From Alkalilimnicola ehrlichii MLHE-1 (GTDB lineage: Bacteria; Pseudomonadota; Gammaproteobacteria; Nitrococcales; Halorhodospiraceae), in contig NC_008340.1 in the NCBI RefSeq assembly GCF_000014785.1, positions 1,200,001-1,232,000 on the forward strand: a stretch of DNA of 32,000 bases, given 5' to 3'. This document shows, piece after piece, positions 3,001 to 28,250 of this stretch. Both the position numbers and the translations under genes were made by a program. Position 1 is the first letter of the stretch, and each line of letters begins with the position of its first letter. The notes under the pieces were generated by a model, which saw only the letters and a list, made by a program, of their open reading frames with translations, made no database searches and had not been told where the DNA came from.

Positions 3001-6000
3001 CCTACGACGAGGCGGAGTCCAATCTGCTGGACATGGCCGACGGTTGGCTCACCACCTATGCCAACGCCGCGGCCGAATCGGAGGACGGGGTCTTCGACGG
3101 CGCCGCCGCCGTCAACTTCGCCCGCTACAACGTCAACGCCGACGCCTGGATCGGTGAGGGCGCCGAGGTGACGGCCGGCGGCACGGCTGGCGATACCGGC
3201 TGGAGCACCGAGCTGCGCCCGGCGCAGGACAATGGCGATCCGGCCCTGAGCCGTCGGTGGAACGAGGCGATCACCGTCAGCGCCGGGGCCGATGTCCGCA
3301 CCATCGACGTCGCCGGCAACGTCGGTGGCCTGCTCACCGCCGGCGTCGCCGGGGACGCCACCGTGGGCATCGGCGCCGGTTTCGCCTGGTTGGAGCGCGG
3401 CGGCCACGTCAGCGCCGGTATCGCCGACCACGCGGTGGTGAGCGCCAGCCACGGGCAGGGCACCATTGGCGTGCACGCCGAGCGCTTCGACCAGTCCATC
3501 GGCATTGCACCCAGTTCCGGCCACGGGGCCAGCTTCGCCGGCAACGGTACGGTGGTGGTCAACCGCCTGGACACCGATACCGTGGCCGCGGTGAGCCACG
3601 CGGCGGCGGTCGACGCCGCGGCACTGACCGTCAGCGCCGGCCGCGATCTGCGCTGGTGGTCGGTGGCCGGTTCCATCACCCTGGCCGAAAGTGTCGCTGT
3701 CGGCGTCGGCATCTCTGTCAACGAACTGCGGACCGATACCCGGGCCGTGATCGGCGATGTGGCCGGTCTCCGCCCGGCGATGGCCGGCGGCGGGGACGTC
3801 ACCGAGCTGGATGACACCGAACAGGGGATTACCGCCGACCAGGTCACCGTGGCCGCACGCAGCGATGGCCTGGTGGGCAGTGCCTCCATCGCCGGCGGCG
3901 CCGCCGGTGAGACCGGCGAGCCGCCGGCCACCGACAACTGGACCGACTCCGGGCTGACCAATGACGTGATTGGTGTCACCTCCGATCGCACCGAAGGGGC
4001 GGAAGCCCCCGAGGATGAGACCATCGCCGAGGCCGTGCAGAGCGGGACCGGCGAGCCAGCCGGGGCGCTGGATGAGCAGGAGGCGTCGGCGGACGACCTG
4101 GACGAGGACGGCGACCTTGCCAACCCGGACCCCACCCAGCCCGACCTGGAGACCTTCCCCGACGAGGGTGCGGACATCCCGGACGCGGGCGCCGATGCCG
4201 ACAGCGAGGAGACGGACCTGGGCGTCGCCGTGGCGGGGTCGGCCTCGGTCAACCTCAGCAGTCTGAACACCACGGCGCTCATCGAGGACGTGTCGCTGGC
4301 GGCGCGCGATGCCGACACCACCGACGTTACCGCCAGCGCGGTGGCCGCCGTTGACACCATCGCCGTCAGCGGCTCCGGGGCCCTGGTGCTGGGCGGTAAC
4401 AGCAGCGACCCTCAGGTGGCCATCGCCGGCACCGTGGGCGTCAATCTGCTCGGCGACCACACCCGGGCGCGGCTGGTGGACACCCGGATCGAGCAACCCG
4501 GCCAGGTGACGGTGGAGGCCCTTCGCGACGGTGAGTTGATCAGCGTCGGCATGGGGTTGGCGATCACCGCCAGTGGCTCCACCAAGGCCGCCGCCGTGGC
4601 CGGTTCCGTCTCCCTCAGCGACATCAGTAATGAGACCGCGGCCACCATCGAGGGCGGCACCATCGGCGACCCCGGGAGCGATCCCGAACCCGACGACGGG
4701 AGCGGGGTGCAGGTGCTGGCCTATGACCGCTCCAGCATCGGGACCGGTGGGGGTTCGCTGTTCGGCGGCAAGGGCGGTGGCTTCGGCGCCGCGGTGACTC
4801 TGGCCCAGGTGCGTAACACCATCGATGCGGGCATTCTCGGTACGCGCATCACCGACGTGGCCGAGGTGACCGTGGATGCCCTCAGCGCCACCCGCATCAT
4901 CAGTGCCGGCGCGGTGCTGGGTTACGGCGGAAAAGGGGCGGTGGGCGGCGCGGTGGTGTTGAACCGCATCGGCAACACCACCAAGGCCGCGATCGCCGAC
5001 CGGGACGACGGCGACGACGTGGAACGCGCGGAGATCACCGCCAATGAGCGGGTGCGGGTGCGGGCGCGCAGCGCCAGTGACGATGAACGCGTGGCGCTGG
5101 ACGACCGCATCGATGCCGCCGGTGGCGGTCACGTTTACAACTTCAGTGGTGAGGGCACCGCGCTGGCCGAGCCCGAGGCCGAAGGTGATCGCGACTGGGG
5201 CGATGACAGCTACGAAACCGGCGGCGATGAGTTCGCCGGCGAGGGCGGCGACCAGGCGGAGATCGACAGCGGCTACGATGACGCCGCCGAGGATGCCCGC
5301 TTCGACGGTGGCCCGCTGGAGGGTGATGCCATTGTCGGTGTGGCCGGCAGCATCAGCGCGAGCGGCAAGGCCAGCATCGGGCTGGCCTTCAGTGGCAACC
5401 AGATCGACAACGACTACATCGCCGAGGTGCGCGGCGCCCGGATCGACGGCGTGGATGGCGAGCTGAGCGTCGATGCCGCCGACCGGTCGCGGGTCATCGG
5501 CCTGGGGGTGGGCGGCGGCGCCTCGGGCAAGGTGGCCATCGCGGGCTCCGGCGCCGCCAATCTGATCGGTGGCGAGGCGCGTGCCACCATCGGCGGCAGC
5601 CGTGCGCAGGCGGACGACGGCCCGGTCCACCTGGCGGAGATCGACGCCGGGGCGGTGAATCTCGGCGCCGATCGCGGTAGCCGCATCGATGCCCTGGCCG
5701 GCAACGTCGCCTTCTCCGGCAAGGCCGGCATCGGTGCCGCCGTGGCCTACAACGCCATCGACACCGCGGTGGCGGCCGAGATCAACCACGCCGATCTCGC
5801 GCTGTCCGGGGGCGACCTGAGCATCGACGCCGGCAGCTCTTCCGACATCTACGGGGTGGCCGTCTCCGGCGGGGGCGGTGGCAAGGTGGCGCTCAACGGC
5901 AGTGCCATCATCAACTTCATCGATCTCGATGTCAGCGCCGGGCTGGGCAGCAGCCGGGTGCGCGACACGGGTGCCGTGCGAATCACCGCCGGCGACCATG

Positions 6001-9000
6001 GCGCCGGTGGCCAGGCCGCCATCTGGAGCCTGGCGGGAGCCATCAACGGTGCCGGCAAGGTCGCGCTGGGTGCGGCGGTGGCCTACAACGAGATCGAATC
6101 CCGCTTTGCCGCGGACATCACCGGCGCCGACATCGAAGCGCTGGGCCCGGTGGATGTGACCGCAGAGGTCAGCGGTGACATCAACACCCTGGGCGCCGCC
6201 GGCGGAGGCGCCGGCAAGGTGGCCCTGGGGGGCGCCGCCACCGTGAGCCGGATCGACAACACCGTCACCGCAAGCCTGACCGGGAGCCGGCTTTACGCCC
6301 CGGCGGCGCTGGTCACCGTGGCGGCGTCGCAGGATAGCCGTATCCGCGCCCTGGGCGCTGCCATTCAGGGTGGCGGCAAGGTGGGCGGGGGCGCGGCAGT
6401 GACCGTTAACCAGATCGGCTCCGGGGTGACTGCCGAGGTGACCGGCGGTGCGCCCGGTCTGCCGGCCGCCATCGATGATCCCGCCGGCGGCGGCGACGCC
6501 GAGGCCCACTACCATCTCGGTCACCTGGTGGTGGATGCCCGCTCGGACAACGAGATTCAGACCATCGCCGCCGGTGCCGCCGCCGGGGGTGTCGGCGGCG
6601 TGGCCGGTTCGGTCTCCACCAACCTGTTCGGCAACCGGACCAAGGCGCGGATCGCCGACGGTGCCGACGTGCTGGCCGAGGGCCACGTGCTGGTGGACGC
6701 CGCCAGCAGCGACAACGTGGCGTTGGTGGCCGGCAGCCTCGGCTTCGGCGGCAAGGCCTTTGGCGCTGCGGGCACCGTCGCGGTCAATATCGTGGAGAGC
6801 GAGACCCACGCCTGGATCGGCGGTGAGGACCCCGGCGACGCCACCGTGGTGGTCGCCCGGGCGCAACAGCCGGGCACGGTCAGTGGCCGTGACCACCGGT
6901 TGCACGCCATCCCCGGGCTGGTGGACAAGTCCGACGGCGAGAACACGTTTGATGACGAGGACGGTGTCGAGATCTACGACAGCGAGGTCGACGACGCCGC
7001 CGAGGACCGCGACGGCACCGGGGGCGGTAGCACCGGAGGCTTCTCGGTGGAGGACGAGGCGGGCGATTACCTGCTCAGCCGCCTGGTCCGGGATGATGAT
7101 CGCGGGGTGGACGGCGTCCGGGTGAGTGCCCGCTCCGATCAGACCACCAGCGCCGCCCTGGCCACCGCCGGCATCTCCGCCAACGTGGTGAAGGGCGGGG
7201 TGGGGTTGGCCGCCACCGCGTTGGTCAACCGCATCGCCGGCGAGACCACCGCCGGTATCCGCAACAGCGAGGTCAGCTCGGAGACCGATGTGGCGGTCTC
7301 TGCCGGAGGGCATGTGCATACCCGCGGCCTGGTCATCGGCGCTGCCCTGGGCAGTGTCGGTGCCTCCGGTGCGGCGGTGGTGGATGTGGTCACCCGCCGG
7401 ACCCGCGCCGGGATCGACGACGCCACGGTGACCGCCGGGGGGCGGATCGACGTGGACGCCGCCGGTTCTCAGAGCACCAGCGGCCTGGCCATCGGGGCCT
7501 CCGGCGGCACCTACGCCAGCCTGGCCGGCGGCGGGGTGGTCAGCCGGCTGGGGGCGCAGACCCTGGCGGAGGTCACCGGCAGTCGCCTGGAGGCGGGCGA
7601 CGTGGGCGTGCAGGCGGACAGCGACACCGGGGTGACGATGCTCACCGGCACCGTCTCGGTGGGTGCCGCGGCCGCCGCCGGCTCCTTCAACGTGGCGGTG
7701 GTGGACGCCGTCACCGTGGCCCGCATCGCCGACAGCGATCAGGACCGTTCCCGGCTCTCGGTGGAGGGCGAGGTGGACGTGGCTGCGGAGTCGTTGAACC
7801 GCTTCGGAACCATTGCCGCCAGCGGTGCCGCCGGCGGCACGGCCATTGCCGGCACCCTGGGCCTGAGCCTGCAACAGAGCGTCACCCAGGCCCGGATCGA
7901 GGGCGCGGCCATCGGCCAGGGGGACGACGATGTCCCCGCGCAGGTTAACGTCCGCGCCCGCGACCACCTGGAGGTGGGGGCCTTTGCCGGTGGTGCCTCC
8001 CTGGGCATGGGGATGGGCCTGGGGGCCGCCGCCAATGTCTTCAGCGGCCAGGCCTCCGTCCTCGCCGAGGTCAGAGACGGCGCGGCGATCGAGGCCGGCG
8101 CGGTGTCGGTCTCCGCCGAGCGCAGTGCCGAGCTGAGCCTGTATACCGCCACCCTGGGTGCCGGCCAGACCGGCTTCAGCGCCGGGGTCGGCGTGATCCT
8201 CCTGGGGGTGGGCGCCGGCGAGGTGACGCCCACCCGGGGCGAGGATGATATCGCCGAAGACGACGTGGAGGGCGGTCTCGAGCGGGAGCTCAATGGCAAC
8301 GGCGGCGGCACTCTGGACACCGCCAATACCTTCGCCAACTTCAGTTTCGAGGGGGATCCGGACAATGACGCCAACACCGAGGACGATGTCGGCGGCAGCC
8401 TCAGCGACGATCAGCGGGACAGCCTGGAGAGCGACCTCGAGTTCAACCTGACCGAGTCGGTGATCGATGGCGATGACCACCAGACGGTGGCCCGCATCGA
8501 TGCCAGCGATCTCCGCGCCGACCGGGTGGACGTGACCGCCGATGACCGGGTGGCCACCCGCAACTACGTGGGCTCCGGTGCGTTGGGGGGTGTCGGCTTC
8601 GGCGCCGCGGTGGGCTTCACCCGGGTGGGTAACGGGGTGGTGGCCGAAATCGGGGGTGACGGCACCCTGGATGTCGGCGAGCTCACCATCCGAGCCGGTC
8701 ACGACGACCTTGGTGGTGGCACTGCGGCGGAGACCCGCGCCTGGGCCGGGGCCGCAGGCGGCATCGGCCTGGCCGCCGCCTATGCCGATGCCGATGTGAC
8801 CACCGGGGTGCGTGCCACCCTGGGCCCGGTGAACCTCCAGCGCGACGCGGCCGACGACGCCGGCGTCGAGCTCACCATCGACGCCTTCGACCACGGCGGG
8901 ACCTATGCCGAGACCATCGGCGTGGCCGCGGGCTTCGTGGCCGGTGTGGGGGCGGCGATCTCCCGCGCGGCGCGAACCTCCACGGTAATCGCCGAGGTGG

Positions 9001-12000
9001 CCGACGACACCGCCGTCGGCAGTGACGACGAGGATTCGGCGGACTTCGATCTCTCCCTCAGCGCCGTCTCCGACGGTGGCGTGGCGGTCGATGGCATCGC
9101 CCTCGGGGCCGGCGTGGTGGGCGGCGGCGCCGCCGCCCTGGCGCTGGGCGAGGAGCGCTCGACGGTGCAGGCGCGCGTGGGCAACGGCGCTGACCTGCGG
9201 CTGGGCGACGGCGCGCTGACCCTGGATGCCCTGGCCCGGCCGGATGTGACCGCGGACGGGGTCGGGGTGGCGGCAGCGGTGACCGGGGCCATCGCTGCGG
9301 CGGTTTCCCGCGCCTACTCTTCGGCCACCGTTGAAGCGGCCGTCGGTGACTTAGACGGCCCCGGTGGCGCCGCGGTGCAGGCGCGCGCGGTGGATGTCCG
9401 GGCACGCAGCCTGCCGGTGGGCAGCTACGGTGCCGAGGCCGAGGCCATCGCGGGGAGTATCGCCAAGGGCGTGGCGGTCTCCGGGTCCTTCGCCTTCGCC
9501 ACCGACACCGCCACCGTAAACGCCGGCCTGGGGCCGGGGGCGGACCTGACCCTGGGCGGCGACGGGCTGTCGGTGTGGGCCGAGGCCGATCCCGCGGCCC
9601 GGGCCCGGACCCACGCCCGCACCTTCGCCGGCGGGGTCGCCTTCGGTGCCAACCTCTCGCAGGCCGCGTCCAATGCCGAGGTGGCAGCGGTGGTGGGTGA
9701 CCAGGCCTCGGTGCGGCTGGCCGACGGGGTGGACGAGGCCGATTTCACCATCCGCGCCATCGCCAATGACGACGGCAGTCGTACCGCCTACGCCACCGGC
9801 GCGGTGAGCGGTGGCGCGCTGCTGGTGTCCGCCAACGGCGGCTATGCCCGGGCCTATGAGCAGACGGCGGTGGACGCCCGCATCGGCACCGGCGCGACCC
9901 TGGACGCCGGTGCCGGTGAGGTGCGGCTGGGCGCCGACGCCACGCCCCACGCCCGGGCCGTGCTCGCCAGCCAGTCTTACGGTGGCGCGTTGGCCATCGG
10001 GGCCGCCATTACCGACGCCCGGGTGGCGGCCGACGTGACCGCTGCCATCGGTGACGGAACCGCCATTCTGGGCGGCGGTGACTTGACGGTGCACGCCCAC
10101 GTCGCCCGCCCGGCGGGTGCCGACAGTGCCTTTGCCCGCTCCGAGGCCAGCAGCGGCGCGCTGGCATCGGCCAATGCGGCCCTGGCGGAGGCCCGCAATC
10201 ACGCCCGGTCGCGGGCGCTGACCGGGGCCGGTGTCACCCTGCCCGGTGGCGTGGTGAGCCTGCGGGCGGAGAACCACAGCCGGCAGCACGGCCACAGTGC
10301 GTCGGAATCCTACGGCGCCTTCGCGGCCGGGATGACCGTGACCCGGGTGGAGTCCGACACCCTGACCCACGCCATCCTCGGCACCGACAACCAGGCCAGC
10401 GACAACGATGATCGGCCGGACGTGGTGGATGTCACCACCAACGCCAGCAGCCACGACCACGGCTTTGGCCAGACTGCCACCGGGGGCGCCATCGACGGGG
10501 CCGCGGCGGAGGTGCATACCTTCAGCACCGCCGATAACCGGGCCCAGGTGCTGGGCCACCACAGCGACCCGCTGCAAGTGGGTGTGCTGAATGTCCGGGC
10601 GCTGCAGGACACCCGCTTCTCCGGCGTGGTGGACACCAGCCGCGCGTCGGTGGCCGGTGCCAGTGGTGCCCGCCTGTACCATAACGCCAACCGGGTCACG
10701 GGCATCGTCAACGTCGACGAGGAGCGGGAGGCCTTCTACGGGGAAACCAGTGTAGTGGAGGCCGGGATCGGCGACCACGCCGATATCCGCGCCCTCTACG
10801 TGGACGTGATCGCCGAGCAGGCGGTGGAGCGCGTCGCCGACGCCGGTAACGACATCCGGGTTGCGGGCGGCGGGGTGCTGGGTGCCTCCGCCGGCCGCGG
10901 CGCCACGTATATTGAGACGATCACCCGGGCGGGTATCGGCACCGGGGCCACGGTCAACGTGGAGCTGGACCTGCTGGTCCGCGCCATCGAGGCGATCACC
11001 GCCGAACAGGTCGCCCGTCTGAACACCGGCAACGCCATCGATATCGCCCGGGCCGAGTCGGTGATGCACACCGATCACCAGAACGACGTGATCATCGGCG
11101 GAAACGCCAACATCACCGCCGGTGGCGATGTGGTGCTCTCCAACGCCACCGAGTTGGACCTGGTGGCTCATACCCGCGCCCGCACCTCCGGGGTGGCCAG
11201 TTTCGCCCGCGGCAACAGCGAGGCGGAGGCCGATGTGCGTGAGGGGATCACCGTGGGCAACGGCGCGCGGCTGGCCTCCGCCGGCAACGTGGTCATGCGC
11301 ACCGGCCTGGGCGACGGCGGTTTGCCGGCTCGCAAGGGCGTGGAGGCCGATACCTACCTGTACAACAAGGGGGCCCTGCCGCTGGAGAACGACCCTCGCG
11401 TGCATGCGGACCTGGTGGTGGACAGCCGTATCGACGTGGCCGACAACGCCGTGGTCGAGGCCGGACAGGACGCCTATCTGATCGCGCCCGTGGGTTTCCG
11501 GTACCGGGCCCGGGGCGAGGGCGAGGGCCAGGACATCTACCGGCGCGCCGCCGAGTCCATCGCCAACTTCTTCCGCCGGCTGGTCCGTGCCGATGAGGTC
11601 TCGCTGGCGAAGGAGGTGCGTAGCGAGGACCTGGTCCGGGGTAGCACCATCACCATCGACGGCCAGGTGGTGGGCGCCGGCGGCATGCACCAATACCTGT
11701 GGGTGCGCCAGGGCGACGATGACGACGAACGCATCCTGGCCAGCCCGGGTGTCGGCTACTTCTTCGAGGAACGCGACGTGCGCGGTGACCTGGAGGCGCT
11801 GGTCGGTGCCTACCGGGATCTGCTGGGGGAATACGTGGAGCCGGATCCGGACGATCCGGAGGGCTCCGGTCTGCTGTTCTGGCGCGCCGCCGCCCAGATC
11901 GAGACCCTCGCCGGCCGCCTGGCTGCCCTGGGGGATGAGGATGACGGGCCCTATGACGGCGGCCGGGCGGTGCCCTTCATCGAGGTGGAGGACATCACCG

Positions 12001-15000
12001 CCACCGGTGGTGATGTGGTCGTCCGGGCGGATGCGGTGGAGGGTGGTGGCGAGGTCCGGTTGGGCCCGGACCTGGAGGCCATCTTCAGCGACTTCGCCGG
12101 TGGGGATCTCAACCAGGTGCCGGCCGAGTTCCTGGAGCCGGGCGGGCCGAGCATTCGCATCCTGGTGGAGTCCAACGAGTGGCTGCAGGTCAACGACCTG
12201 ATCATCGACGACCGCCGTGACGGCAGCATCACCATCGCCCAGGAGAGCGGCGCCTTCGGCGGTATCGCCGTGCCGACCCGGGTCTCCGGGGTGGGTGAAC
12301 TGCCAAGCGGGCTTCGCTACGACACCGGCGGGGTGGAGGCCACCCCGGAGATCCGCGTGGTGCACCAGTTCGAGGTCCCGCCCCAGGAGGACCACCTCTA
12401 CACCAACCCGGAGATCCGCCTGGGCCACGAGCCGGACCCCGCCGACCAACTGGAAGGCGAGTCGGTGACCGCCCGCATCATCAACCCGCGCGGTCTGGTG
12501 CAGGTGGGCAACCAGGCCGGCAGCATTATCTCCTCGGCCAGCATCGAAGCCGCCGCGGTGGAGATCGTCGCCGGTGGTAATTTCGTGCAGAACTGGATTC
12601 CCGGGTTCTTCCACGCCGGCGGGCAGCCCGAGGCCGCCGGCGAGGCCAGCCGCATCCTGGCCGGGGGCGACATCTACATCAGCGCCGAGCACATCAATGT
12701 CAATGGCCTGATCCAGAGCGGGTTCGACGAGTGGACGCTGGATTTCTCCTCCGACCTGCTGGGGAATGCCGGGACCACCCTCGATTTCGACGCCGACAAG
12801 GGCCACAGCCTGGGTGATTACCTGGAGTGGTACGGCAAGGGTTATCGTGCCACCAAGGAGGTGGAGGAGGCCCCGATACCCTTCTGGGCGCAGTTCTTGC
12901 CGCCCTCCATTTGGCACCTGCTGGGCTATGGCTTCGCCCCCGACGTCGACGCGGCGGATGTGCCGGACGATTTCCGCACCGCCTACAACGCCGGCCGTAG
13001 CGGTGAGCAGTTCCTGCAGCTGACCGGCGGCGAGGGCTTCGACGTGGAACTCGGCACCGTGGCCAGCTTCTACGATGCCGAGGCCGACCGCATCGACATC
13101 CAGCGCGCCGCCGTGGGCGGTGGCTACATCTTCCTGGCGGGCGACGTGGTGAGCACCGGCGGAGGCGAGATCCGGGCCTTGTCGGGTTTCGGTGAGATCC
13201 GGGTGGATACCACCGGCGGCGGGGAGGACGCCTTCCGTACTCACCAGGATGTGGTGCTCTATGACCTGGACGCCGGGACCCAACCCCATGCGCCCAGTTT
13301 CGACCTGCCCGAGGAGGAGCTGATTTCTGCGGAGGGCCTAGCGCCCTGCCGGCCCTGCGTGAGGATCTGGGATACCGCCAAGCGTGACGGCGAGGGCAAC
13401 CCCATCGAGACCGTCTTCCAGCACGACTGGAACCCGGACCCAGCGGCCCCGGACGGGAGCTTCGGCACCATCGCCAAGACCGTCTCCCGGCTCGACCGCG
13501 AGCAGCGTGACGATGACTTCTTCCTGCTGCGCACCGTGGTCGACGAGGATGACCCCTTCTATGGCCAGGAGCAGGACGCAGGCTTCGGCCCCCGTCCGGG
13601 GGCCACCGCGCAGTACCTGCCCCGCGAAGGGATGCGCTACCTCTACGGCGACAGCGTGGATGAAGACTCCGGGCGGCTGCTGTTCCCGGACGACGATGTG
13701 CCGTCAGGGCCGGGCTATCAGTCCATGCGGGCGGACCGGGCTATCGACGTCGGGTTCATCGGCAACCCGGTGGGTACCATCGACATCAAGAGCATCGGTG
13801 ACGTGATCATCGACGGCAGTGTGCGCAACCCCCAGGGGCTGACCACGGTGGAGACCGTCGGTAGCATCCGGGAGCCGGAGCAGGGCGGGCTGTTGCAGGG
13901 TCGCCAGCTCACTCTGGAGGCCGGTGGCGCCGTCGGCAGTGAGGGCGCCCCGCTGCGGGTGATCGTGGGTGACGGCGAGGTCACGCCGGACGATGCCTGG
14001 CTGGTGGCCCTGGCCGGGGATGGCGGGGTCTTCCTGGACGGCCTGCGCGGCGATCTGCCGGTGCGCGAGGTGGGGACGCTCAGCGGCCATACCGTGGACA
14101 TCGACGCGGCCCGTCACTTGATCGACCGCGGCACCGCCCCCGACCGGCCCACGGTCTACGGCGCCCGGGTGCATCTGCGTGCCCGGGACGGCTCTATCGG
14201 TGGCAGGGAGCAGGGCGAATTCGTGCTGCCGCTGACCATCGCCTCCGGGGTCGGGGTTGTGGTGGACGATCCGGACGCGCTGCCGGATTGGCTGAACCTT
14301 CCGCTGGGCAGCGCCAACGTAACCGCCCGCGCCGCCGGCCATGTCCTGCTCGCGGAAGATGCCCGCGGACTGGCCAGTGCCGGTGTGCCCGTCGACGGTG
14401 ACATTCACGTGGAGGCGCTCCGCGCCGCCGAAGGCGATGTCCGGCTCTTTATCGCCGACGGCAAGCTGATCAGCGCCATCGACGCCGAGCTCGATACCGA
14501 CCGCATGGTCCGCCTGGGCGAGATGTGGGACTCGCTGGGGATGCTCGACGACGGCTCGCCCAACAGCGGCGTAGCCCGCTTTGTCGAGGATCAGGTGGAG
14601 GCCTTCGAGGCCTCGGTGGAGAGCCGCTACCGTGACTGGTGGGAGCTGGACCGCCTGGCCGGGGAGGACGGCGGCTTCGACCTGGCCCCGGATCGGGCCC
14701 GCATTTACGCCCACCGGGCCGGCGTCGACGGCTCACCGGAGGCGTGGGACGAGACGGCGGACCCGCAGGGCGTGGCCGACAACACCGCCGCGGTCAATGC
14801 CTGGCTGGAGGGCCGTTACGGCGCGCTCAGCGATGAATTGGGCGAACTGCTGCTGGAGGGCAACGGCGACCAGTCCCTGGCGGACCTGGGTACGGTGGTC
14901 GAGGAACCGCTGGCCGAGGATCCGGCCACCGGGGAGATGCTGTTCTATGAACGGGTCGAGTTCGATTACCAGGCGCCGGACAGTGTCCGTGACCAGCTCG

Positions 15001-17165
15001 CGGAAGGGGCGGAGTGGACCGAGGAGCAGTTGCTCAACGTCCTCAGCGAGGACCGGATGCTGGAGACTGTGGACACCCAGTACCAGCGGGTGGAGACCAT
15101 TATCCAGGGGGAGAATGTGGCCATCGAGGCGCCGCGGGGTTCCATCGGCTCGTCTGACGACCCGCTCTGGATCCCGGCCCCCGAGGACGAGGACAGCAAC
15201 TTTGATTTCACCGAGGAGGAACGCGCCGCCCTGGTCAGCGCCCAGCCGGGCGATGTCCGGCTGATCGGCGAGGTGGTGTTGGTGGATGGCCAGGTCATGG
15301 ACCTGGGCGATTTCCTGCGCCTGCTCGGCACCGGGGGCCCCGGCGGGCTCACCCTGGAGGATCTCGACACGGTCGATTTCGACGGCATCGAGATCGAGCA
15401 GGTACGCTACGCCGGGGTCATCGCCACGGAGGGGGGGCAGTCGCACCATGCCGCCGATGACCTTGGCGGCGACATCTTCCTGGGTGTCCCCGGCACCAGC
15501 ATCGCCCTGGAGCGGCTCTGGGGTGGTGGCGACATCCGCGTGCGGGTCGGCGGCGGTATCGAAGCCCACGACGACCCGACACGGGGCGATGATCCGGAAG
15601 ATGCCATCATCCGCGGCGGTGCGGCGGGGGTGCTGCTGGAGGCGGCCGGCGGCGGCATCGGCGCCGAGGGGTTGCCGCTCACCACCGCGTTGGACCCCCG
15701 CGCCCTGATCACCGCCCGGGCCGTGGGCTCGGTGCACCTGCACGCCCTGGGCGGTAACCTGACCCTGGACAGTGTCTTCAGCGAGCAGGGCGATGCCGTG
15801 CTGGCTGCCGACCAGGGGCATATCGCCCGTTTGGCGCTGCCGGGCGCGCCGCTGGCGGACTTCGGCACCCTGGACATCGCCGCCGATGAGATCCGGCTGG
15901 ATGCCGGCACCTTTGTCGGCGCGGTGGATCGCGACGCCTTCCTGGCCCTGGACAGCACGGCTGAGCCGGGGGACCTGGAGGCGGTCACCGACGCCGCCAT
16001 GCGCCTGCGCCACGGTGACGACGCCCGGGTGACCGGTTCTGCCGGGGACCGCTTCCAGGTGTTCGCGCCGGAAGGGGGGCTGGTGGTCCGCGATGTGGAA
16101 GCCGGCGGCCGGGTCGTGGCCGGCGCCTGGGAGGATGTCACCCTGGAGCGGGTGACCAGCACCGCTGGCGACGGCGAGGCGGCCTTCGTCTTCAGCGAGA
16201 CGGGCTTCATCATCGGCAGCAATGAGGCCGGCCTGGAGGAACCGCTACACCTGCGGGCACTGGGCGGGGACGCCACCACGCGGTTGATCGCCCCGCTGGG
16301 CATCGGTCTGCCCGATGACTTCCTGTTCCTCGATGCCACCCGGATCAGCTCCGCCACCACCCTGGGCGGTCACGCCTTCCTCCACGGCACCACCGATTTG
16401 CGAGCCGATCTGATAGACGTGCCCACCGGGCGGTTGGAGGTGCGCGCGCCCCAGGCCATCGAAATCGATCGGTTGCGGGTTCACGACCGGGTGGACCTCA
16501 AGGGCGACGCCATCGAGGCGCACATCGAGCACACCGCCAACCCGGACCCGCTGCCGCTGGACGTGGTGGGCCTGGTCGAGCACTACGCATCGGAGGTGGA
16601 CCTGTCCGTGGACACCCCGGCCGATCTCATCGTCGAGCGGCTCTATGCCCGCCGCGCCCGATTGGAGACCAACACCACGCGAGTCGACATGCCGGACAAC
16701 GACATCTTCCACTGGTTGGAGGTGTTCACGCCGGAGGTCCACCTGTGGGCCGACAACCAGCGGCCCGACCGGCGCGACGTGGACGTCCAGCTCTATGAGC
16801 CGGGGTACCGCTTCTTTGTCGACCAGGACGGGCGGCACACCATCACCAACGCCTTCAGCGGCGCCTACCGGCCCGGCTACCGCCTGGAGCTGGTCAACTA
16901 TCAACCGGGCCGCGACCGCGCCCGTTTCGATGTGGATGGTCGCAGCATTGTGCGCGATGCCGGTCGGCTGGAGCAGCGCATCGTGCCGATCCCCGACACC
17001 CTGCCGGGGCTGCGGGCCTTCTGGCCGGACGACGAGGTCTCGGTGCAGGTGGTCGGTGCCGGCCTGCCGGGGGCGCCGCCCGACTTCCCGGTTAACCTGG
17101 ACTGGACCGGTCTGTTGCAGGGCGATGACGATCAATCCGGGGCAGAGGAGAATGGCGCTCAATGA
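1..17165 (+). CDS. Giant secreted filamentous exoprotein, TpsA-like / LktA-family-like beta-helical adhesin (5' partial, >5,718 aa)
   Basis: One uninterrupted frame runs from the window edge (codons in phase with nt 3/9) to TGA at 17163-17165. The true start and any N-terminal TPS secretion domain therefore lie upstream of the window. The translation is Gly/Ala/Val/Asp/Thr-rich with recurring beta-helix-like units (e.g. GAGKVALGAAVAYNEI). It has almost no Lys and only two Cys, as expected for type V secreted filamentous proteins. Its stop overlaps the start of a TpsB gene. The family call rests on motif recognition plus context, not on a search. Confidence 0.9.
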   Translation, partial: ALVPEGLEEVAESAIDSGLEAVDDELDNQDLPDFGLGLGLVDASAIVTLEDGAELDAGGNVNIHAEAQRTARAEAHADGDGLGGAFALASISGQTAVTVEEGASIVAGGDIDLRAASHNELVAEAVTEVGDGFDVGLGGSVALGFLQSEPEDGGTTVQVQEGATLAAGGDLGLSAFTEHDVTVDATTTLGSGGEAAFGATVAYLGLDWTTRTLLTGGAVADDTVEPPVGIVAGGDLRMVARTDQAIHTGASVETTGDISVGLAAAVAELNNTTRVVLDGTVRAGGDATLLAESITRAQHTVATTRAAEDADNNGGNGNDGPDEAADDQGTSDYVAGLVGDVDTGEPEETPGAGGNGGLALDIGAAVAYTDARDSASTTLGGNTQLLPPAGPLGPGGQVAIVSRRQLDNLSTRARSGTEATGPDGDDGANSINAAVSYARLDQIARTEIADGARIEAGRIGVGAEVDLPARVAWGDEDNEDGPGGLDDIAGADSDDLDDWLTSEASTSSETGGTVNIAGAVNLLDLTATAEALVGTGDDPTDVTTLHAVGDGGDWETELGGDTTWHWDDAVAVAARSRVETVDVAGQAAAAGTVGVGGGVNWHLRESTARARLAGSADISADTGGVSVSADRRDRAIVLTPIAGESDGGAVGLGASVAYARIDGTSQAQLDEGAMVAAGGALAVTAGGDLHAEILTASKTSGDATAGIAGTVAFADISLDTTAAVHGQPVDNALEVGDLYLHALDLQDYQVQASAEAQGDVAIGLAGAVLDTEAGTRALLYRDVTTDGDVVLIADSETTGRGVAASTRAETGEAGDNGNGENNTGDDRDLNTVDFVQQRGERGNEGVDDGLQDVAGDPGAGQSEEAGFDVNVGAAVAFTGADDSAGAHIGEAVTISGPGGGAAGDVAVLARRAESGYRGRAQTEVETAPEDDGVGVGVGAALTLTFMDNSAEALIGASAVVDAHRVGVAADVILPDHFEGPAWDGLETLRDLAQDDDDELTYDEAESNLLDMADGWLTTYANAAAESEDGVFDGAAAVNFARYNVNADAWIGEGAEVTAGGTAGDTGWSTELRPAQDNGDPALSRRWNEAITVSAGADVRTIDVAGNVGGLLTAGVAGDATVGIGAGFAWLERGGHVSAGIADHAVVSASHGQGTIGVHAERFDQSIGIAPSSGHGASFAGNGTVVVNRLDTDTVAAVSHAAAVDAAALTVSAGRDLRWWSVAGSITLAESVAVGVGISVNELRTDTRAVIGDVAGLRPAMAGGGDVTELDDTEQGITADQVTVAARSDGLVGSASIAGGAAGETGEPPATDNWTDSGLTNDVIGVTSDRTEGAEAPEDETIAEAVQSGTGEPAGALDEQEASADDLDEDGDLANPDPTQPDLETFPDEGADIPDAGADADSEETDLGVAVAGSASVNLSSLNTTALIEDVSLAARDADTTDVTASAVAAVDTIAVSGSGALVLGGNSSDPQVAIAGTVGVNLLGDHTRARLVDTRIEQPGQVTVEALRDGELISVGMGLAITASGSTKAAAVAGSVSLSDISNETAATIEGGTIGDPGSDPEPDDGSGVQVLAYDRSSIGTGGGSLFGGKGGGFGAAVTLAQVRNTIDAGILGTRITDVAEVTVDALSATRIISAGAVLGYGGKGAVGGAVVLNRIGNTTKAAIADRDDGDDVERAEITANERVRVRARSASDDERVALDDRIDAAGGGHVYNFSGEGTALAEPEAEGDRDWGDDSYETGGDEFAGEGGDQAEIDSGYDDAAEDARFDGGPLEGDAIVGVAGSISASGKASIGLAFSGNQIDNDYIAEVRGARIDGVDGELSVDAADRSRVIGLGVGGGASGKVAIAGSGAANLIGGEARATIGGSRAQADDGPVHLAEIDAGAVNLGADRGSRIDALAGNVAFSGKAGIGAAVAYNAIDTAVAAEINHADLALSGGDLSIDAGSSSDIYGVAVSGGGGGKVALNGSAIINFIDLDVSAGLGSSRVRDTGAVRITAGDHGAGGQAAIWSLAGAINGAGKVALGAAVAYNEIESRFAADITGADIEALGPVDVTAEVSGDINTLGAAGGGAGKVALGGAATVSRIDNTVTASLTGSRLYAPAALVTVAASQDSRIRALGAAIQGGGKVGGGAAVTVNQIGSGVTAEVTGGAPGLPAAIDDPAGGGDAEAHYHLGHLVVDARSDNEIQTIAAGAAAGGVGGVAGSVSTNLFGNRTKARIADGADVLAEGHVLVDAASSDNVALVAGSLGFGGKAFGAAGTVAVNIVESETHAWIGGEDPGDATVVVARAQQPGTVSGRDHRLHAIPGLVDKSDGENTFDDEDGVEIYDSEVDDAAEDRDGTGGGSTGGFSVEDEAGDYLLSRLVRDDDRGVDGVRVSARSDQTTSAALATAGISANVVKGGVGLAATALVNRIAGETTAGIRNSEVSSETDVAVSAGGHVHTRGLVIGAALGSVGASGAAVVDVVTRRTRAGIDDATVTAGGRIDVDAAGSQSTSGLAIGASGGTYASLAGGGVVSRLGAQTLAEVTGSRLEAGDVGVQADSDTGVTMLTGTVSVGAAAAAGSFNVAVVDAVTVARIADSDQDRSRLSVEGEVDVAAESLNRFGTIAASGAAGGTAIAGTLGLSLQQSVTQARIEGAAIGQGDDDVPAQVNVRARDHLEVGAFAGGASLGMGMGLGAAANVFSGQASVLAEVRDGAAIEAGAVSVSAERSAELSLYTATLGAGQTGFSAGVGVILLGVGAGEVTPTRGEDDIAEDDVEGGLERELNGNGGGTLDTANTFANFSFEGDPDNDANTEDDVGGSLSDDQRDSLESDLEFNLTESVIDGDDHQTVARIDASDLRADRVDVTADDRVATRNYVGSGALGGVGFGAAVGFTRVGNGVVAEIGGDGTLDVGELTIRAGHDDLGGGTAAETRAWAGAAGGIGLAAAYADADVTTGVRATLGPVNLQRDAADDAGVELTIDAFDHGGTYAETIGVAAGFVAGVGAAISRAARTSTVIAEVADDTAVGSDDEDSADFDLSLSAVSDGGVAVDGIALGAGVVGGGAAALALGEERSTVQARVGNGADLRLGDGALTLDALARPDVTADGVGVAAAVTGAIAAAVSRAYSSATVEAAVGDLDGPGGAAVQARAVDVRARSLPVGSYGAEAEAIAGSIAKGVAVSGSFAFATDTATVNAGLGPGADLTLGGDGLSVWAEADPAARARTHARTFAGGVAFGANLSQAASNAEVAAVVGDQASVRLADGVDEADFTIRAIANDDGSRTAYATGAVSGGALLVSANGGYARAYEQTAVDARIGTGATLDAGAGEVRLGADATPHARAVLASQSYGGALAIGAAITDARVAADVTAAIGDGTAILGGGDLTVHAHVARPAGADSAFARSEASSGALASANAALAEARNHARSRALTGAGVTLPGGVVSLRAENHSRQHGHSASESYGAFAAGMTVTRVESDTLTHAILGTDNQASDNDDRPDVVDVTTNASSHDHGFGQTATGGAIDGAAAEVHTFSTADNRAQVLGHHSDPLQVGVLNVRALQDTRFSGVVDTSRASVAGASGARLYHNANRVTGIVNVDEEREAFYGETSVVEAGIGDHADIRALYVDVIAEQAVERVADAGNDIRVAGGGVLGASAGRGATYIETITRAGIGTGATVNVELDLLVRAIEAITAEQVARLNTGNAIDIARAESVMHTDHQNDVIIGGNANITAGGDVVLSNATELDLVAHTRARTSGVASFARGNSEAEADVREGITVGNGARLASAGNVVMRTGLGDGGLPARKGVEADTYLYNKGALPLENDPRVHADLVVDSRIDVADNAVVEAGQDAYLIAPVGFRYRARGEGEGQDIYRRAAESIANFFRRLVRADEVSLAKEVRSEDLVRGSTITIDGQVVGAGGMHQYLWVRQGDDDDERILASPGVGYFFEERDVRGDLEALVGAYRDLLGEYVEPDPDDPEGSGLLFWRAAAQIETLAGRLAALGDEDDGPYDGGRAVPFIEVEDITATGGDVVVRADAVEGGGEVRLGPDLEAIFSDFAGGDLNQVPAEFLEPGGPSIRILVESNEWLQVNDLIIDDRRDGSITIAQESGAFGGIAVPTRVSGVGELPSGLRYDTGGVEATPEIRVVHQFEVPPQEDHLYTNPEIRLGHEPDPADQLEGESVTARIINPRGLVQVGNQAGSIISSASIEAAAVEIVAGGNFVQNWIPGFFHAGGQPEAAGEASRILAGGDIYISAEHINVNGLIQSGFDEWTLDFSSDLLGNAGTTLDFDADKGHSLGDYLEWYGKGYRATKEVEEAPIPFWAQFLPPSIWHLLGYGFAPDVDAADVPDDFRTAYNAGRSGEQFLQLTGGEGFDVELGTVASFYDAEADRIDIQRAAVGGGYIFLAGDVVSTGGGEIRALSGFGEIRVDTTGGGEDAFRTHQDVVLYDLDAGTQPHAPSFDLPEEELISAEGLAPCRPCVRIWDTAKRDGEGNPIETVFQHDWNPDPAAPDGSFGTIAKTVSRLDREQRDDDFFLLRTVVDEDDPFYGQEQDAGFGPRPGATAQYLPREGMRYLYGDSVDEDSGRLLFPDDDVPSGPGYQSMRADRAIDVGFIGNPVGTIDIKSIGDVIIDGSVRNPQGLTTVETVGSIREPEQGGLLQGRQLTLEAGGAVGSEGAPLRVIVGDGEVTPDDAWLVALAGDGGVFLDGLRGDLPVREVGTLSGHTVDIDAARHLIDRGTAPDRPTVYGARVHLRARDGSIGGREQGEFVLPLTIASGVGVVVDDPDALPDWLNLPLGSANVTARAAGHVLLAEDARGLASAGVPVDGDIHVEALRAAEGDVRLFIADGKLISAIDAELDTDRMVRLGEMWDSLGMLDDGSPNSGVARFVEDQVEAFEASVESRYRDWWELDRLAGEDGGFDLAPDRARIYAHRAGVDGSPEAWDETADPQGVADNTAAVNAWLEGRYGALSDELGELLLEGNGDQSLADLGTVVEEPLAEDPATGEMLFYERVEFDYQAPDSVRDQLAEGAEWTEEQLLNVLSEDRMLETVDTQYQRVETIIQGENVAIEAPRGSIGSSDDPLWIPAPEDEDSNFDFTEEERAALVSAQPGDVRLIGEVVLVDGQVMDLGDFLRLLGTGGPGGLTLEDLDTVDFDGIEIEQVRYAGVIATEGGQSHHAADDLGGDIFLGVPGTSIALERLWGGGDIRVRVGGGIEAHDDPTRGDDPEDAIIRGGAAGVLLEAAGGGIGAEGLPLTTALDPRALITARAVGSVHLHALGGNLTLDSVFSEQGDAVLAADQGHIARLALPGAPLADFGTLDIAADEIRLDAGTFVGAVDRDAFLALDSTAEPGDLEAVTDAAMRLRHGDDARVTGSAGDRFQVFAPEGGLVVRDVEAGGRVVAGAWEDVTLERVTSTAGDGEAAFVFSETGFIIGSNEAGLEEPLHLRALGGDATTRLIAPLGIGLPDDFLFLDATRISSATTLGGHAFLHGTTDLRADLIDVPTGRLEVRAPQAIEIDRLRVHDRVDLKGDAIEAHIEHTANPDPLPLDVVGLVEHYASEVDLSVDTPADLIVERLYARRARLETNTTRVDMPDNDIFHWLEVFTPEVHLWADNQRPDRRDVDVQLYEPGYRFFVDQDGRHTITNAFSGAYRPGYRLELVNYQPGRDRARFDVDGRSIVRDAGRLEQRIVPIPDTLPGLRAFWPDDEVSVQVVGAGLPGAPPDFPVNLDWTGLLQGDDDQSGAEENGAQ
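4767..6800 (+). repeat. Degenerate tandem ~54-codon coding repeats (G-G-K-x-x-x-G-x-A-x-x-x-N/x-x-I modules) inside the giant ORF
   Basis: In-frame Gly-Lys motifs have Lys codons at 4770, 4932, 5367, 5529, 5721, 5883, 6057, 6216, 6378 and 6753. Most spacings are 159-192 nt, and 162 nt is the commonest. Unit examples: FGGKGGGFGAAVTLAQV, YGGKGAVGGAVVLNRI, ASGKVAIAGSGAANLI, FSGKAGIGAAVAYNAI, GGGKVALNGSAIINFI, GAGKVALGAAVAYNEI, GAGKVALGGAATVSRI, GGGKVGGGAAVTVNQI, FGGKAFGAAGTVAVNI. The repeats are diverged at the DNA level. Confidence 0.8.
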
Positions 17166-18847
17166 AGCGGTGGGGCTCGGAAGAATCGCGGCGGGCGCCG
17201 CTGCTGGCGGTGGTCGTTTGCCTTCCCCTGCTGACGGCGGGTGCGGTCCATGCGCAGACACCGGGCGCCCAGCCCGAACCCGGGCCGGGCGTCGATCCGG
17301 CGCTCCAGTTGCGGGAGTTGTTGCGCGAGCGTGAGCGCCTGGAGGAGCGCGGGCCACGGCCGGAGGAACCCGAGCTGGATATCCCGGAGCTCGTCCTGCC
17401 CGACCTGGAGGATGAGACGGTGGAGTTCCTCCTCAGAGAGATCCGCTTCTCCCCTACGGAGCTGCTGGACGAGCAGTGGCTCACCGAGCTGGCGGAGGAA
17501 TACATCGGGGAAGTGGTCAGTTTCGGTCAGGTGAACGAGCTGGTGGAACGCATCAACAGCGCCTATGCCAAACAGGGCGATGTCACTGCCCGGGCCTTCG
17601 TGCCGCCACAGCAGATCGTCGACGGCCGGCTGCAGATCCTGCTGGTGGAGGCCCGGATCGGTAGCGTGGCCGTGGAGGGGGCCGAGCACACCGAACCGCG
17701 GTACATCCGCGGCCGTATCCCGCTGGAGGAGGGCGAGGTGCTGCGGGTGCCCGATCTGCGCGCCTCGGTGCGTGAATTCAACCGTCGTGAGGCGCTGCAG
17801 GCCGGCGTGGCGCTGCGTCCGGGCGAGGCGTTCGGTGAAAGCGATGTGGTCCTGCAGATGCTTGAACCCCCGCGGCTGCGCTACCAGCTCTTTGCCGACA
17901 ACGCCGGCGCACGCAGTACCGGTGAAGAGCGGATCGGCGGCATGGCCAGTTGGTATTCGCCCTTCGGCCGGGCCGACCGGTTCACCGCCTTTCTGGTGGG
18001 AAGTAGCGGGGCCACCGCCCTCGACTTGAGCTACGCCACCCCTGTCGGCCATCGCGGGGCGGCCCTCACCGCCCGCCTCGCCTACAACGAGATCGAGATC
18101 GTCCGTGGTCCGCTGCGCGATCTGGACATAGAGGGTGAATCGTTGCGTGGTTCCCTGCGCTATACCCATCCCCTGGCATGGAGCGAGCGCCGCACCTGGG
18201 ATGCCGTCGGCAGCCTGGGCTATGTCCGCTCCAAGACCGAACTGGACGGGGTTACTTTCGCCGACAACGAGGTGACGCGGGTGGACGCAGGCGTGCGCCT
18301 GCGCCAGTACGGCCAACCCGGTCCCCACACCCACTTCCTCGAGGTCGAGCAACGCCTGGCCCACGCCCACTTCCGGGAGAGCGCCGGGGAACTGGATGAG
18401 ACCGATGACAGCCTGCTCTGGGATGGCCGCCTGCTCTGGGAGCAGCGCCTGCCCCGGGCCTTTTATACCCTGTCGCGGGCCGAGTGGCAGTATGCCGACA
18501 GCCCGGAGGCGGTGCTCTCACCGCAGCTCTTCCAGGTGGGCGGCGCTTTCGACGTGCGCGGCTACCCGCAAGGGGCCACCGCGGGTGAGAGCGGCTATTA
18601 CCTCAGCCTGGAGTTGCGCTACGCCGGCTTTGCCGCCGTGGAGCCCTTCGTCTTCGTTGATCACGGCGGGGTGCGCCAGGAGGACCAGGATAACGAGCGC
18701 CTGACGAGCTGGGGCGCCGGTGCCTTCCTGGACCTCGGTCGCGGCTTCTCCGGCAGCCTGACGGTAGGCGTGCCCGCCAGCGACGTGTTGCCGGACCAGG
18801 ACGACTACCGGATCCATTTCCGGATCGCCTGGCAGGGCCAGCGCTGA
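17162..18847 (+). CDS. Two-partner secretion outer-membrane transporter, ShlB/FhaC/HecB (TpsB, Omp85 superfamily)
   Basis: ATG 17162 overlaps the giant-ORF stop (ATGA), with GAGGAG 11 nt upstream. There is a signal peptide, MKRWGSEESRRAPLLAVVVCLPLLTAGAVHA/QT. A POTRA-like region follows (VEFLLREIRFSPTELL...INSAYAKQGDVTARAFVPPQQIVDGRLQILLVEARIGSVAVEG). It also carries an FADNAGARSTGEER motif and the TpsB/Omp85 loop-6 motif FDVRGY (nt 18554-18565). At 561 aa it is a typical size for this family. Confidence 0.9.
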   Translation: MKRWGSEESRRAPLLAVVVCLPLLTAGAVHAQTPGAQPEPGPGVDPALQLRELLRERERLEERGPRPEEPELDIPELVLPDLEDETVEFLLREIRFSPTELLDEQWLTELAEEYIGEVVSFGQVNELVERINSAYAKQGDVTARAFVPPQQIVDGRLQILLVEARIGSVAVEGAEHTEPRYIRGRIPLEEGEVLRVPDLRASVREFNRREALQAGVALRPGEAFGESDVVLQMLEPPRLRYQLFADNAGARSTGEERIGGMASWYSPFGRADRFTAFLVGSSGATALDLSYATPVGHRGAALTARLAYNEIEIVRGPLRDLDIEGESLRGSLRYTHPLAWSERRTWDAVGSLGYVRSKTELDGVTFADNEVTRVDAGVRLRQYGQPGPHTHFLEVEQRLAHAHFRESAGELDETDDSLLWDGRLLWEQRLPRAFYTLSRAEWQYADSPEAVLSPQLFQVGGAFDVRGYPQGATAGESGYYLSLELRYAGFAAVEPFVFVDHGGVRQEDQDNERLTSWGAGAFLDLGRGFSGSLTVGVPASDVLPDQDDYRIHFRIAWQGQR

Positions 18848-24724: not shown

Positions 24725-24746
24725 AGCCATGGTGTGTGACGGCGAA

Positions 24747-24790: not shown

Positions 24791-24836
24791 GATCACAAAA
24801 AATGAACATATTTCATCTATTGCCTTGTCCCATCGT

Positions 24837-28225: not shown

Positions 28226-28250
28226 TGGAGTAAGATCAATAGACCATCGA

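Follow-up and report, generated by a model that had tools for sequence, protein, structure and literature searches.

The stretch of DNA analysed here, referred to as the window, comprises 32,000 nucleotides (nt) of Alkalilimnicola ehrlichii MLHE-1 (contig NC_008340.1, positions 1,200,001 to 1,232,000, forward strand) and carries a giant open reading frame (ORF) on the plus strand (9..17165), which is open at the left edge and of which 5,718 amino acids (aa) lie within the window. On comparing its sequence with those of its relatives, we conclude with high confidence that the part encoded by nt ~11,400-17,162 is the conserved C-terminal module belonging to an LktA-family type Vb exoprotein of ~6,040 aa, and not a variable cargo. 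The giant protein is identified by its sequence features as a two-partner-secretion (TPS; type Vb) TpsA exoprotein of the kind that NCBI names 'leukotoxin LktA family filamentous adhesin', since it combines LktA_tand_53 repeats with an overlapping gene for a ShlB/FhaC-type TpsB partner. These tandem repeats (NF012206 of NCBIfam; E 8.3e-91; 298 bits against a cut-off of 50) form 28 stretches over aa 1-2997, with three further weak stretches reaching aa ~3090, and the C-terminal ~1,900 aa are colinear with proteins bearing the family name. The cognate Omp85-family partner gene alongside, tpsB, encodes a product with POTRA domains (PF03865 ShlB, E 5.5e-27; PF08479 POTRA_2, E 3.7e-16; the POTRA model of Pfam was also matched), and its ATG at 17162 overlaps the stop codon of the giant gene at 17163-17165 (4-nt overlap). 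In the source assemblies the full-length giant product has 6,040-6,062 aa, the N-terminal ~322-344 of which, including the place of the family's FxxPxG domain, fall outside the window. As the same locus is present in a complete genome (GCA_049262545.1; CP183314.1, 3.26 Mb) and in two independent Sequence Read Archive assemblies, the giant ORF is no assembly artefact.

The module was traced through several kinds of search, and its spread carries the conclusion above. In a word-indexed protein database the window protein's C-terminal region matched one sequence, a 3,099-aa protein from a Caenispirillum metagenome-assembled genome (MAG), which is 25 % identical, colinear over query residues 4-1796 and endowed with LktA repeats; that a single match was obtained is probably explained by the acidic, biased composition of the query, which would starve a word index. 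When the C-terminal part of the Caenispirillum protein served as query, 22 proteins from Rhodoferax, Thauera, Hydrogenophaga, Rhodocyclaceae, Denitromonas and Aquincola were retrieved, all of them (P0001-P0022) colinear with window aa ~3100-5650 and one named 'leukotoxin LktA family filamentous adhesin'; BLASTP high-scoring segment pairs cover, for example, query residues 3110-3896 against P0014 and P0016 and 3128-3948 against P0001. A profile made from window aa 4140-5310 and seven relatives (A1) was compared by HMMER with 1.84 billion cluster representatives (50 % identity) and matched 2,095 of them at E<=1e-3, 1,561 at E<=1e-10 and 954 at E<=1e-30. All of the 150 strongest matches have E<1e-154, and most of them are near-full-length, these lying mostly in proteins of 3,000-7,800 aa. 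Several module-bearing proteins, amongst them P0011, P0027, P0109 and P0178, bear the NCBI name 'leukotoxin LktA family filamentous adhesin', and the full-length relative P0049 displays the complete layout, with NF012204 adhes_FxxPxG (57-207) and TIGR01901 at the N-terminus, LktA repeats thereafter and then the module at 3374-4469.

At the level of genomes, one representative per species (n=185,579) was scanned with the pattern N[VI][ND]GL[IV]QSG, taken from the most conserved of the six blocks described below (block B), with confirmation by tblastn and a short block-B alignment (A2). The block-B core was thus confirmed at 386 loci, in 386/185,579 species genomes, which belong to Alpha-, Beta-, Gamma- and Zetaproteobacteria, Negativicutes, Fusobacterium, Planctomycetes, Verrucomicrobia, Cyanobacteria, Chloroflexi, Omnitrophota, Methylomirabilota and others, from habitats that include hypersaline, wastewater, gut and marine settings. 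Amongst related loci that were kept, 46 have a TpsB homologue, mostly ~4.4-6.5 kb downstream of the block-B match and on the same strand, which places it right behind the giant gene, as it is in the window, and in a few of them farther off, upstream or on the opposite strand. A tblastn search against plasmids gave no match. Across eight family fragments nothing real was found in Pfam at E <= 0.1, neither an NCBIfam model nor a solved homologue of the module was found for the window protein or the fragments of seven relatives, and literature searches under the family name and the model names returned nothing relevant to it. The original prediction, made from the sequence of the window alone, had seen in this region a protein-specific C-terminal 'cargo' and perhaps the most novel protein sequence in the window; a module conserved family-wide in the same block order, and matched by 2,095 clusters through its aa 4140-5310 profile, agrees with neither view.

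Conservation is equally uniform at short range. The closest orthologue amongst species-representative genomes, in an uncultured Ectothiorhodospiraceae MAG (locus L004), shares the gene order of the window, overlapping tpsB included, and is 76 % identical in block B. Identity amounts to 55-81 % in every 100-aa bin, in the repeats as well as in the C-terminal region, up to aa 5600, with ~72 % in the C-terminal region against ~65 % in the repeats, and it falls only at the very end, to 39 % over aa 5601-5700 and 28 % over aa 5701-5718. The two tails can be aligned up to GRSIVRD.GRL, beyond which the sequence is Pro-rich, acidic and predicted to be disordered. An abrupt C-terminal break of the CdiA type (criterion from PMC5422565), which an orthologue comparison had been expected to expose if the region were a polymorphic toxin, was not seen with this one orthologue. 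The outcome that the original prediction had named as its refutation, a C-terminus uniformly conserved with a known adhesin family, is what L004, the 22 colinear proteins and the 2,095 clusters reveal.

From the family alignment we defined six blocks, A to F, with F spanning aa 5560-5718 in full, and the features of the locus can be listed as follows.

9..9278 (+): LktA_tand_53 repeat stalk of the giant TpsA (aa 1-3090 in the window), by NF012206.
9279..11408 (+): GAVST-rich, beta-helix-like segment without 53-aa repeats (aa 3091-3800), already colinear with relatives, by BLASTP and composition.
11409..12458 (+): block A (aa 3801-4150), end of the stalk, with a conserved G.G.D.YR.A motif and short low-confidence helices regarded as the remnant of a coiled coil of relatives, by conservation and AlphaFold2 (AF2).
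12456..13688 (+): block B (aa 4150-4560), the most conserved, with an aromatic/Pro-rich linker after its cores, by conservation, species scan and AF2.
13347..13358 (+): Cys pair C4447 and C4450 (CRPC) in the aromatic/Pro-rich linker between B and C, the only cysteines in 5,718 aa.
13686..14498 (+): block C (aa 4560-4830), predicted beta-helix segment, by AF2 and hhalign.
14496..15278 (+): block D (aa 4830-5090), predicted helical insert with motifs L..WD.L, Y..W, SW...QL and AAL..A..GD, by AF2 and hidden Markov model (HMM).
15276..16688 (+): block E (aa 5090-5560), second beta-helix-like segment, variable in length in the family, with the motif LEAA.GGIG...PL...ARA, by alignment, hhalign and AF2.
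16686..16898 (+): conserved part of block F (aa 5560-5630), predicted end of a compact C-terminal beta domain, with the motif D.QLY..G..F....T.AF, by AF2 and HMM.
16899..17162 (+): tail (aa 5631-5718), specific to the lineage, rich in Pro, acidic and disordered by prediction, with the stop codon (17163-17165) after it, by AF2 and orthologue identity.
17162..18847 (+): tpsB, gene for the partner transporter of the outer membrane, in translational coupling with the giant gene through the ATGA overlap, by ShlB and POTRA_2.

HMMs of the blocks, built from ~22 mostly betaproteobacterial sequences, were detected amongst 78 long relatives in 78 cases for B, 77 for D, 69 for E, 66 for C, 48 for A and 41 for F. 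Their order A-F is colinear in 52/52 locus ORFs that reach a stop codon, and in the collected protein set a median of 22 residues separates the end of block F from the C-terminus. Across many diderm phyla the same order is kept, namely in Pelosinus, Planctomycetes, Verrucomicrobia, Omnitrophota and Desulfococcus, and partly in Chloroflexi. Within block B, whose mean column identity is ~40 % across distant relatives, two cores are parted by a variable insert: the first reads I.N.RGLV..AGSI...G.FVQ...H..G.P...I.A.G..I.A...N.NG.IQSG (nt 12477-12743) and the second V.GGYI.L.G...T..G...L.G.G.I.V (nt 13071-13208). A distant relationship links block C (aa 4560-4830) to block E (aa 5090-5560), for which hhalign gives a probability of 98 % and E 1.9e-13. 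No block HMM matches the first 3,700 residues of the window protein, and the beta-helix of C and E is consequently taken as a kind of repeat different from the 53-residue LktA repeat.

Two observations on relatives concern this architecture. Relatives have a coiled coil of 120-200 aa between A and B (P0001, aa ~1230-1400; P0007, aa ~1328-1450), where it gives rise to coiled-coil noise in Pfam and PDB searches; such noise is all that the family profile retrieved from PDB sequences, and the counterpart in the window protein consists of two short low-confidence helices at aa ~3928-3975 (nt ~11790-11933). In the 5,075-aa cyanobacterial protein P0109, 34 stretches match profile positions 432-648, which correspond to block C, which implies that in some lineages amplification can turn the beta-helix unit of block C into a long array.

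The border of the region had been placed from a change of composition near nt 11500, and this change is real. In 200-aa windows the switch falls at aa ~3800 (nt ~11,400), with the fraction of Gly, Ala, Val, Ser and Thr at 0.50-0.67 over aa 1-3800 versus 0.33-0.52 over aa 3801-5718, that of Phe, Trp and Tyr at 0.01-0.06 versus 0.03-0.12, and that of Pro at 0.00-0.05 versus 0.03-0.09; the C-terminal region is also richer in charge than the stalk. All four peptides quoted in the original prediction are found in the translation of the giant ORF. As the starting point of a ~1,880-aa region, however, the switch is valid for composition only, because the conserved C-terminal part begins upstream and is colinear with relatives from aa ~3110-3200. 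Similarly, the description of the region as non-repetitive stands at the level of BLAST, where tile-wise comparison gave no internal self-matches past aa 3150, but does not extend to aa 4560-4830 and 5090-5560, which are the distantly interrelated blocks C and E. Tandem Repeats Finder detected no tandem repeats in the DNA, and no LktA_tand_53 match was obtained from NCBIfam with two tiles covering nt 11499-17162.

Signatures of an enzyme or a toxin are absent, in line with what had been read from the sequence alone. Pfam gives no match anywhere in the giant ORF, a single-sequence search of PDB sequences found no relative of the window C-region, and the strings VENN, (Q/E)LYN, VDNN, HNH and HExxH do not occur in the region. 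The string scan and Pfam thus agree with the reported lack of VENN or a similar pre-toxin motif, just as Pfam, NCBIfam, PDB sequences and motif strings agree with the lack of a recognisable enzyme motif; likewise, no immunity-sized ORF follows the giant gene, whose stop codon is overlapped by tpsB, the gene after tpsB being a CHAT-domain gene (1,460 aa). Of the three marks that would be sought in a CdiA-like or polymorphic toxin, namely a pre-toxin motif or pre-toxin (PT) domain, abrupt C-terminal divergence and a small downstream immunity gene, none was observed. Profile searches and structure predictions for the region brought up no enzyme or toxin relative and a predominantly beta prediction (AF2).

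The residues that do not vary across the family are for the most part G, A, N, I, L, W and Y. The few conserved charged positions are E5211 (in LEAA.GGIG), R5237 (in ARA) and the E/D of AAL..AE.GD, and no Ser/His/Asp, Cys/His or metal-binding pattern was found amongst the family-conserved residues. An enzymatic function was considered and rejected, as there are neither conserved residues of catalytic type nor motif strings. A boundary of the (Q/E)LYN kind at DVQLY was also considered and rejected: homology continues past it, the residues right after DVQLY (F....T.AF) are still conserved in the family, and only the disordered tail varies. In many relatives an RGD lies within the conserved AAL..AERGD motif of block D (E 95 % and D 96 % conserved); the window protein has no Arg at that place and reads ALVSAQPGD at aa ~5074-5082.

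Two AF2 models, computed from alignments of 19-21 sequences, cover the module, and the values of the predicted local distance difference test (pLDDT) given here are means of 10-residue blocks. The tile aa 3801-4830 (mc5a7a7e192e3) has a mean pLDDT of 59 and the tile aa 4561-5718 a mean of 69.8, the predicted TM-score (pTM) being 0.54 for each. In block B the two cores (aa 4156-4245 and 4352-4421) are predicted as strands, of 10-13 residues in the first core, with pLDDT ~54-83 and mostly 66-83, and the insert between them stays below 50. Block C (aa 4580-4822) is modelled as beta-helix-like short strands, with pLDDT mostly 75-94 in both models and a dip at ~4750-4770. Over aa 4830-5012 helices are predicted, two of ~30 residues plus shorter ones (pLDDT ~60-88; model residues 270-282, 294-323 and 359-392 in block D), after which aa 5156-5297 are beta again (pLDDT 73-89), aa 5299-5410 are beta with low confidence, aa ~5450-5630 form a compact beta domain with strands of 15-17 residues (pLDDT ~71-94), and aa 5631-5718 are predicted to be disordered (pLDDT <50). 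The module is thus predicted to be mostly beta, with one helical insert of ~170 aa in block D, and its predicted anatomy would run from a family-specific, beta-rich B through the aromatic/Pro-rich Cys linker to a beta-helix C, a helical D, a related beta-helix E, a compact beta F and a disordered tail. Searching both models against the PDB with Foldseek gave nothing at E <= 0.001, the best E values being 0.33 and 1.4; whole-tile models of mixed confidence are poor Foldseek queries. The top hits, amongst unrelated ones, include the beta-helix adhesins and passengers EtpA (a TpsA adhesin of enterotoxigenic Escherichia coli, PDB 8vbb), Hap, Pet, EspC and IgA1 protease, as would suit a right-handed beta-helix character. 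With E 0.33-10 and TM-scores <=0.23 these matches are not significant and amount to a generic resemblance of fold class.

The linker between blocks B and C deserves separate mention. The 200 residues before block C are 9 % aromatic compared with 4.7 % overall, and it is here that the two cysteines of the window protein lie. A close Cys pair is present in the same B-C linker in 83/122 relatives, spaced as C-x5-C in 57/83, and the motif C[ND]WW[TS]xC is carried by 60/175 collected family proteins; the family median is 4 Cys per ~3,700 residues. The pair may be joined in a disulfide loop that is involved in secretion arrest or anchoring.

How such a module might work is best approached through the systems it resembles. 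LktA of Fusobacterium necrophorum has a length of ~3,241 aa, compared with ~6,040 aa for the window protein. The two have many LktA_tand_53 repeats in common and an adjoining TpsB partner each, and proteins sharing the C-terminal module bear the NCBI name of the LktA family, the NF012204 domain being found in P0049. They differ in gene order, which is lktB-lktA-lktC in the Fusobacterium operon but has tpsB downstream here, and in that the host of the window protein is an environmental, probably halophilic gammaproteobacterium; at the Fusobacterium locus (L059) tblastn matches the block-B core only, and none of the block HMMs is matched. LktA leaves the cell through LktB, by the type Vb pathway (bioRxiv 10.1101/534297), and its active region has been suggested to lie within the N-terminal third (PMC11350119).

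FhaB of Bordetella is likewise a giant TpsA in which a repeat beta-helix shaft is followed by a non-repeat domain and a long C-terminal portion outside the shaft. That C-terminal portion is described as not secreted, as assisting the folding of the preceding domain and as controlling release (PMC5422565; PMC4542190, PMC8263021). The FhaB prodomain spans ~1,200 aa and blocks C-F here ~1,270 aa; however, there is no detectable sequence similarity, Pfam and NCBIfam scans of the window protein alone gave no match of the Fil_haemagg type, and the module here is conserved across phyla and not within one genus. CdiA, too, is a TpsA with two different beta-helix repeat regions parted by non-repeat domains. 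Ruhe et al. 2018 are said to have found a Tyr/Pro-rich (YP) region before the second repeat type (FHA-2) of CdiA, and its C-terminal half reportedly waits in the periplasm. Blocks C and E of the window protein have the aromatic/Pro-rich linker before them, much as that region reportedly precedes FHA-2, and the succession of first repeat type, non-repeat domain, aromatic/Pro-rich segment, second repeat type and C-terminal domain would amount to a resemblance in domain logic. Unlike CdiA (features as in PMC5422565), the window protein has no VENN or (Q/E)LYN, no abrupt divergence, no immunity gene and no toxin domain. In HMW1 and HxuA, finally, a loop closed by a disulfide bond keeps the C-terminus locked in the TpsB pore (PMC5422565). 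A Cys pair in an otherwise almost Cys-free giant TpsA is common to these proteins and ours, but the pair here lies ~1,270 aa before the C-terminus and not in the last 20-66 aa, its spacing is CxxC in the window protein and C-x5-C in most relatives, and a disulfide loop within the last tens of residues, as in the HMW1/HxuA-type anchor, is not present.

Against this background, we tentatively favour a conserved end-piece for secretion control or retention, by analogy with these systems, over an enzyme or a toxin. Export of TpsA proteins runs through TpsB, and their folding proceeds progressively outside (PMC5422565); several of them retain their C-terminal part, which then controls release, examples being the prodomain of FhaB, the disulfide anchor of HMW1/HxuA and the tail of CdrA in the periplasm (PMC5422565). 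The giant protein would accordingly be pictured as passing N-to-C through the TpsB encoded by the overlapping downstream gene, with the LktA repeats building the shaft of a fibre. The C-terminal module would be its invariant end-piece, controlling the last stage of secretion and keeping the fibre on the producing cell, by arrest or anchoring at TpsB in the manner of the FhaB prodomain, the C-terminal half of CdiA or the disulfide anchor of HMW1/HxuA, and would not act as an enzyme or toxin. Because the module outconserves the shaft, from hypersaline lakes to guts, a niche-independent job such as finishing or capping the helix, arresting secretion or holding the fibre appears likelier than ligand recognition; the rare Cys pair in an aromatic-rich linker (83/122 relatives), set beside the TpsA precedents for retention, was also counted for a retention role. 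Both the topology and the retention role we infer by analogy. The explanation as a whole, in which the identity as a family C-terminal module is joined to a mechanism of retention or secretion control, we consider probable, the mechanism taken by itself having rather less than an even chance.

Several findings weigh against it. No similarity to the C-termini of FhaB, CdiA or HMW1 was detected, nor any of their Pfam domains. The Cys pair of the window protein, being CxxC, is off the aligned column of the CNWWTLC of relatives, and its homology is uncertain for that reason. The block HMMs do not match the Fusobacterium and cyanobacterial loci, though tblastn finds the block-B core there, and the universality of the module across the LktA family is not fully borne out, limited as it is by HMMs that miss these members. 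Both AF2 models are of moderate overall confidence (mean pLDDT 59 and 70). Lastly, blocks C and E are modelled as confident beta-helix, which in TpsA proteins and autotransporters normally folds outside the cell, and this suits an exported extension no less than a reserve kept in the periplasm.

The last point leads to the alternative that survives best, although we hold it to be somewhat unlikely: the whole module would pass through TpsB and fold outside as the business end of the fibre, with B, D and F protruding from or capping the beta-helix of C and E and binding other cells, surfaces or, in aggregation, the protein itself, or else interacting with a membrane as proposed for leukotoxin LktA. 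Apart from the confident beta-helix of C and E, the helical excursion of D recalls the extra-helical elements of HxuA, and a non-repeat domain after an FHA beta-helix is functionally important (PMC5422565). The Foldseek neighbours EtpA, Hap, Pet, EspC and IgA1 protease are exported beta-helix adhesins and passengers, but the matches are not significant (E >= 0.33), and the RGD seen inside the conserved AAL..AERGD of many relatives, which would suit a binding function, is missing from the window protein (SAQPGD). The strong conservation across unrelated habitats would moreover be unusual for a ligand-specific adhesive tip, and for LktA the active region is suggested in the N-terminal third (PMC11350119).

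A more far-reaching version of the retention reading, which we regard as unlikely, would make A-F an undescribed, phylum-spanning 'terminal apparatus' of LktA-type TPS fibres, a third TpsA C-terminal architecture beside the FhaB prodomain and the YP/FHA-2/toxin arrangement of CdiA. Secretion would be arrested by the aromatic-rich Cys-pair linker, and C-F, which contain no toxin domain, would be held in the periplasm and deployed later (e.g. on contact) so as to extend the fibre or to insert into a target membrane.

The module could also be merely more stalk, that is, a second, diverged kind of beta-helix repeat with loops that only lengthens the fibre, and much in the prediction agrees with this: the secondary structure is mostly beta, C and E are interrelated, the block-C units can be amplified (34 stretches in P0109), and a Toastrack/DUF4097 match falls inside block E of one relative (P0007). 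The original prediction had allowed for beta-helix stalk with a known pro-domain; the beta-helix part of that expectation is largely seen in the models, and a known pro-domain is not recognisable. Blocks B, D and F are, however, single-copy, fixed in order and better conserved than the repeats (~72 % versus ~65 % in the L004 comparison, and ~40 % column identity in block B), F is always terminal where found, and a simple spacer would not keep its block order across phyla, which makes this reading improbable.

A polymorphic-toxin or contact-dependent-inhibition type of cargo with an unrecognised pre-toxin motif, an alternative implicit in the original prediction, for which one could cite the position at a TpsA C-terminus, the superficial likeness of 'QLY' (DVQLYEPG, aa ~5591-5598) to the Burkholderia (Q/E)LYN motif and the fall of L004 identity after it (39 %, then 28 %), is highly implausible given that neither VENN nor (Q/E)LYN strings occur, that Pfam gives no match to a PT domain, that the sequence after QLY is still homologous in L004 up to GRSIVRD.GRL and retains the family-conserved F....T.AF, that only the last ~70-90 aa vary and are predicted to be disordered, and that no immunity-sized ORF comes next, tpsB overlapping the stop codon.

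Amongst the neighbouring genes, the one that begins 97 nt past tpsB (18945-23327, plus strand) encodes a 1,460-aa protein in which three DUF7379 stretches and an alpha/beta-hydrolase region resembling LCAT are combined with a CHAT protease domain at the C-terminus. This CHAT-domain gene is seen in assemblies of the same species alone and in none of the other ~80 family loci; being so confined, its product is probably not a component of the TPS system. In the same slot, directly after tpsB, 11 related loci have a SapC-family gene (PF07277, E 9e-66), including the closest orthologue L004 (9979-10743, plus strand) and L031, L042, L044, L046, L051, L053, L056, L057, L061 and L065, and this gene could be an accessory of a gammaproteobacterial subgroup. 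Opposite the giant gene there are long antisense ORFs at 438-8894 (minus strand, 2,818 aa) and 9351-13289 (minus strand, 1,312 aa), which are typical of coding sequence with 70 % G+C and are not genes. The genes over 23369-32000 seem to have no connection with the TPS locus; they encode a Metallophos phosphoesterase, two GGDEF proteins, of which one has HDOD, a cytochrome b561, a DsrE-like protein and an RND transporter of the AcrB type, and G+C drops from ~0.70 to ~0.60-0.66 beyond nt 24000.

For the window itself, the analysis means that there is no hidden toxin cargo and that a false lead has been removed. The protein is a member of the LktA family already named by NCBI, and it is its C-terminal module that lacks a domain model, a structure and a literature. 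This module, ~1,900 aa long, is conserved in thousands of giant secreted proteins (386/185,579 species genomes; at least 2,095 clusters at 50 % identity), and the blocks A-F, now defined, with the invariant motifs NINGLIQSG, GGYI and LEAA.GGIG, provide annotators with material to model. The only relative that has been studied, the leukotoxin of F. necrophorum, is a veterinary as well as a human virulence factor.

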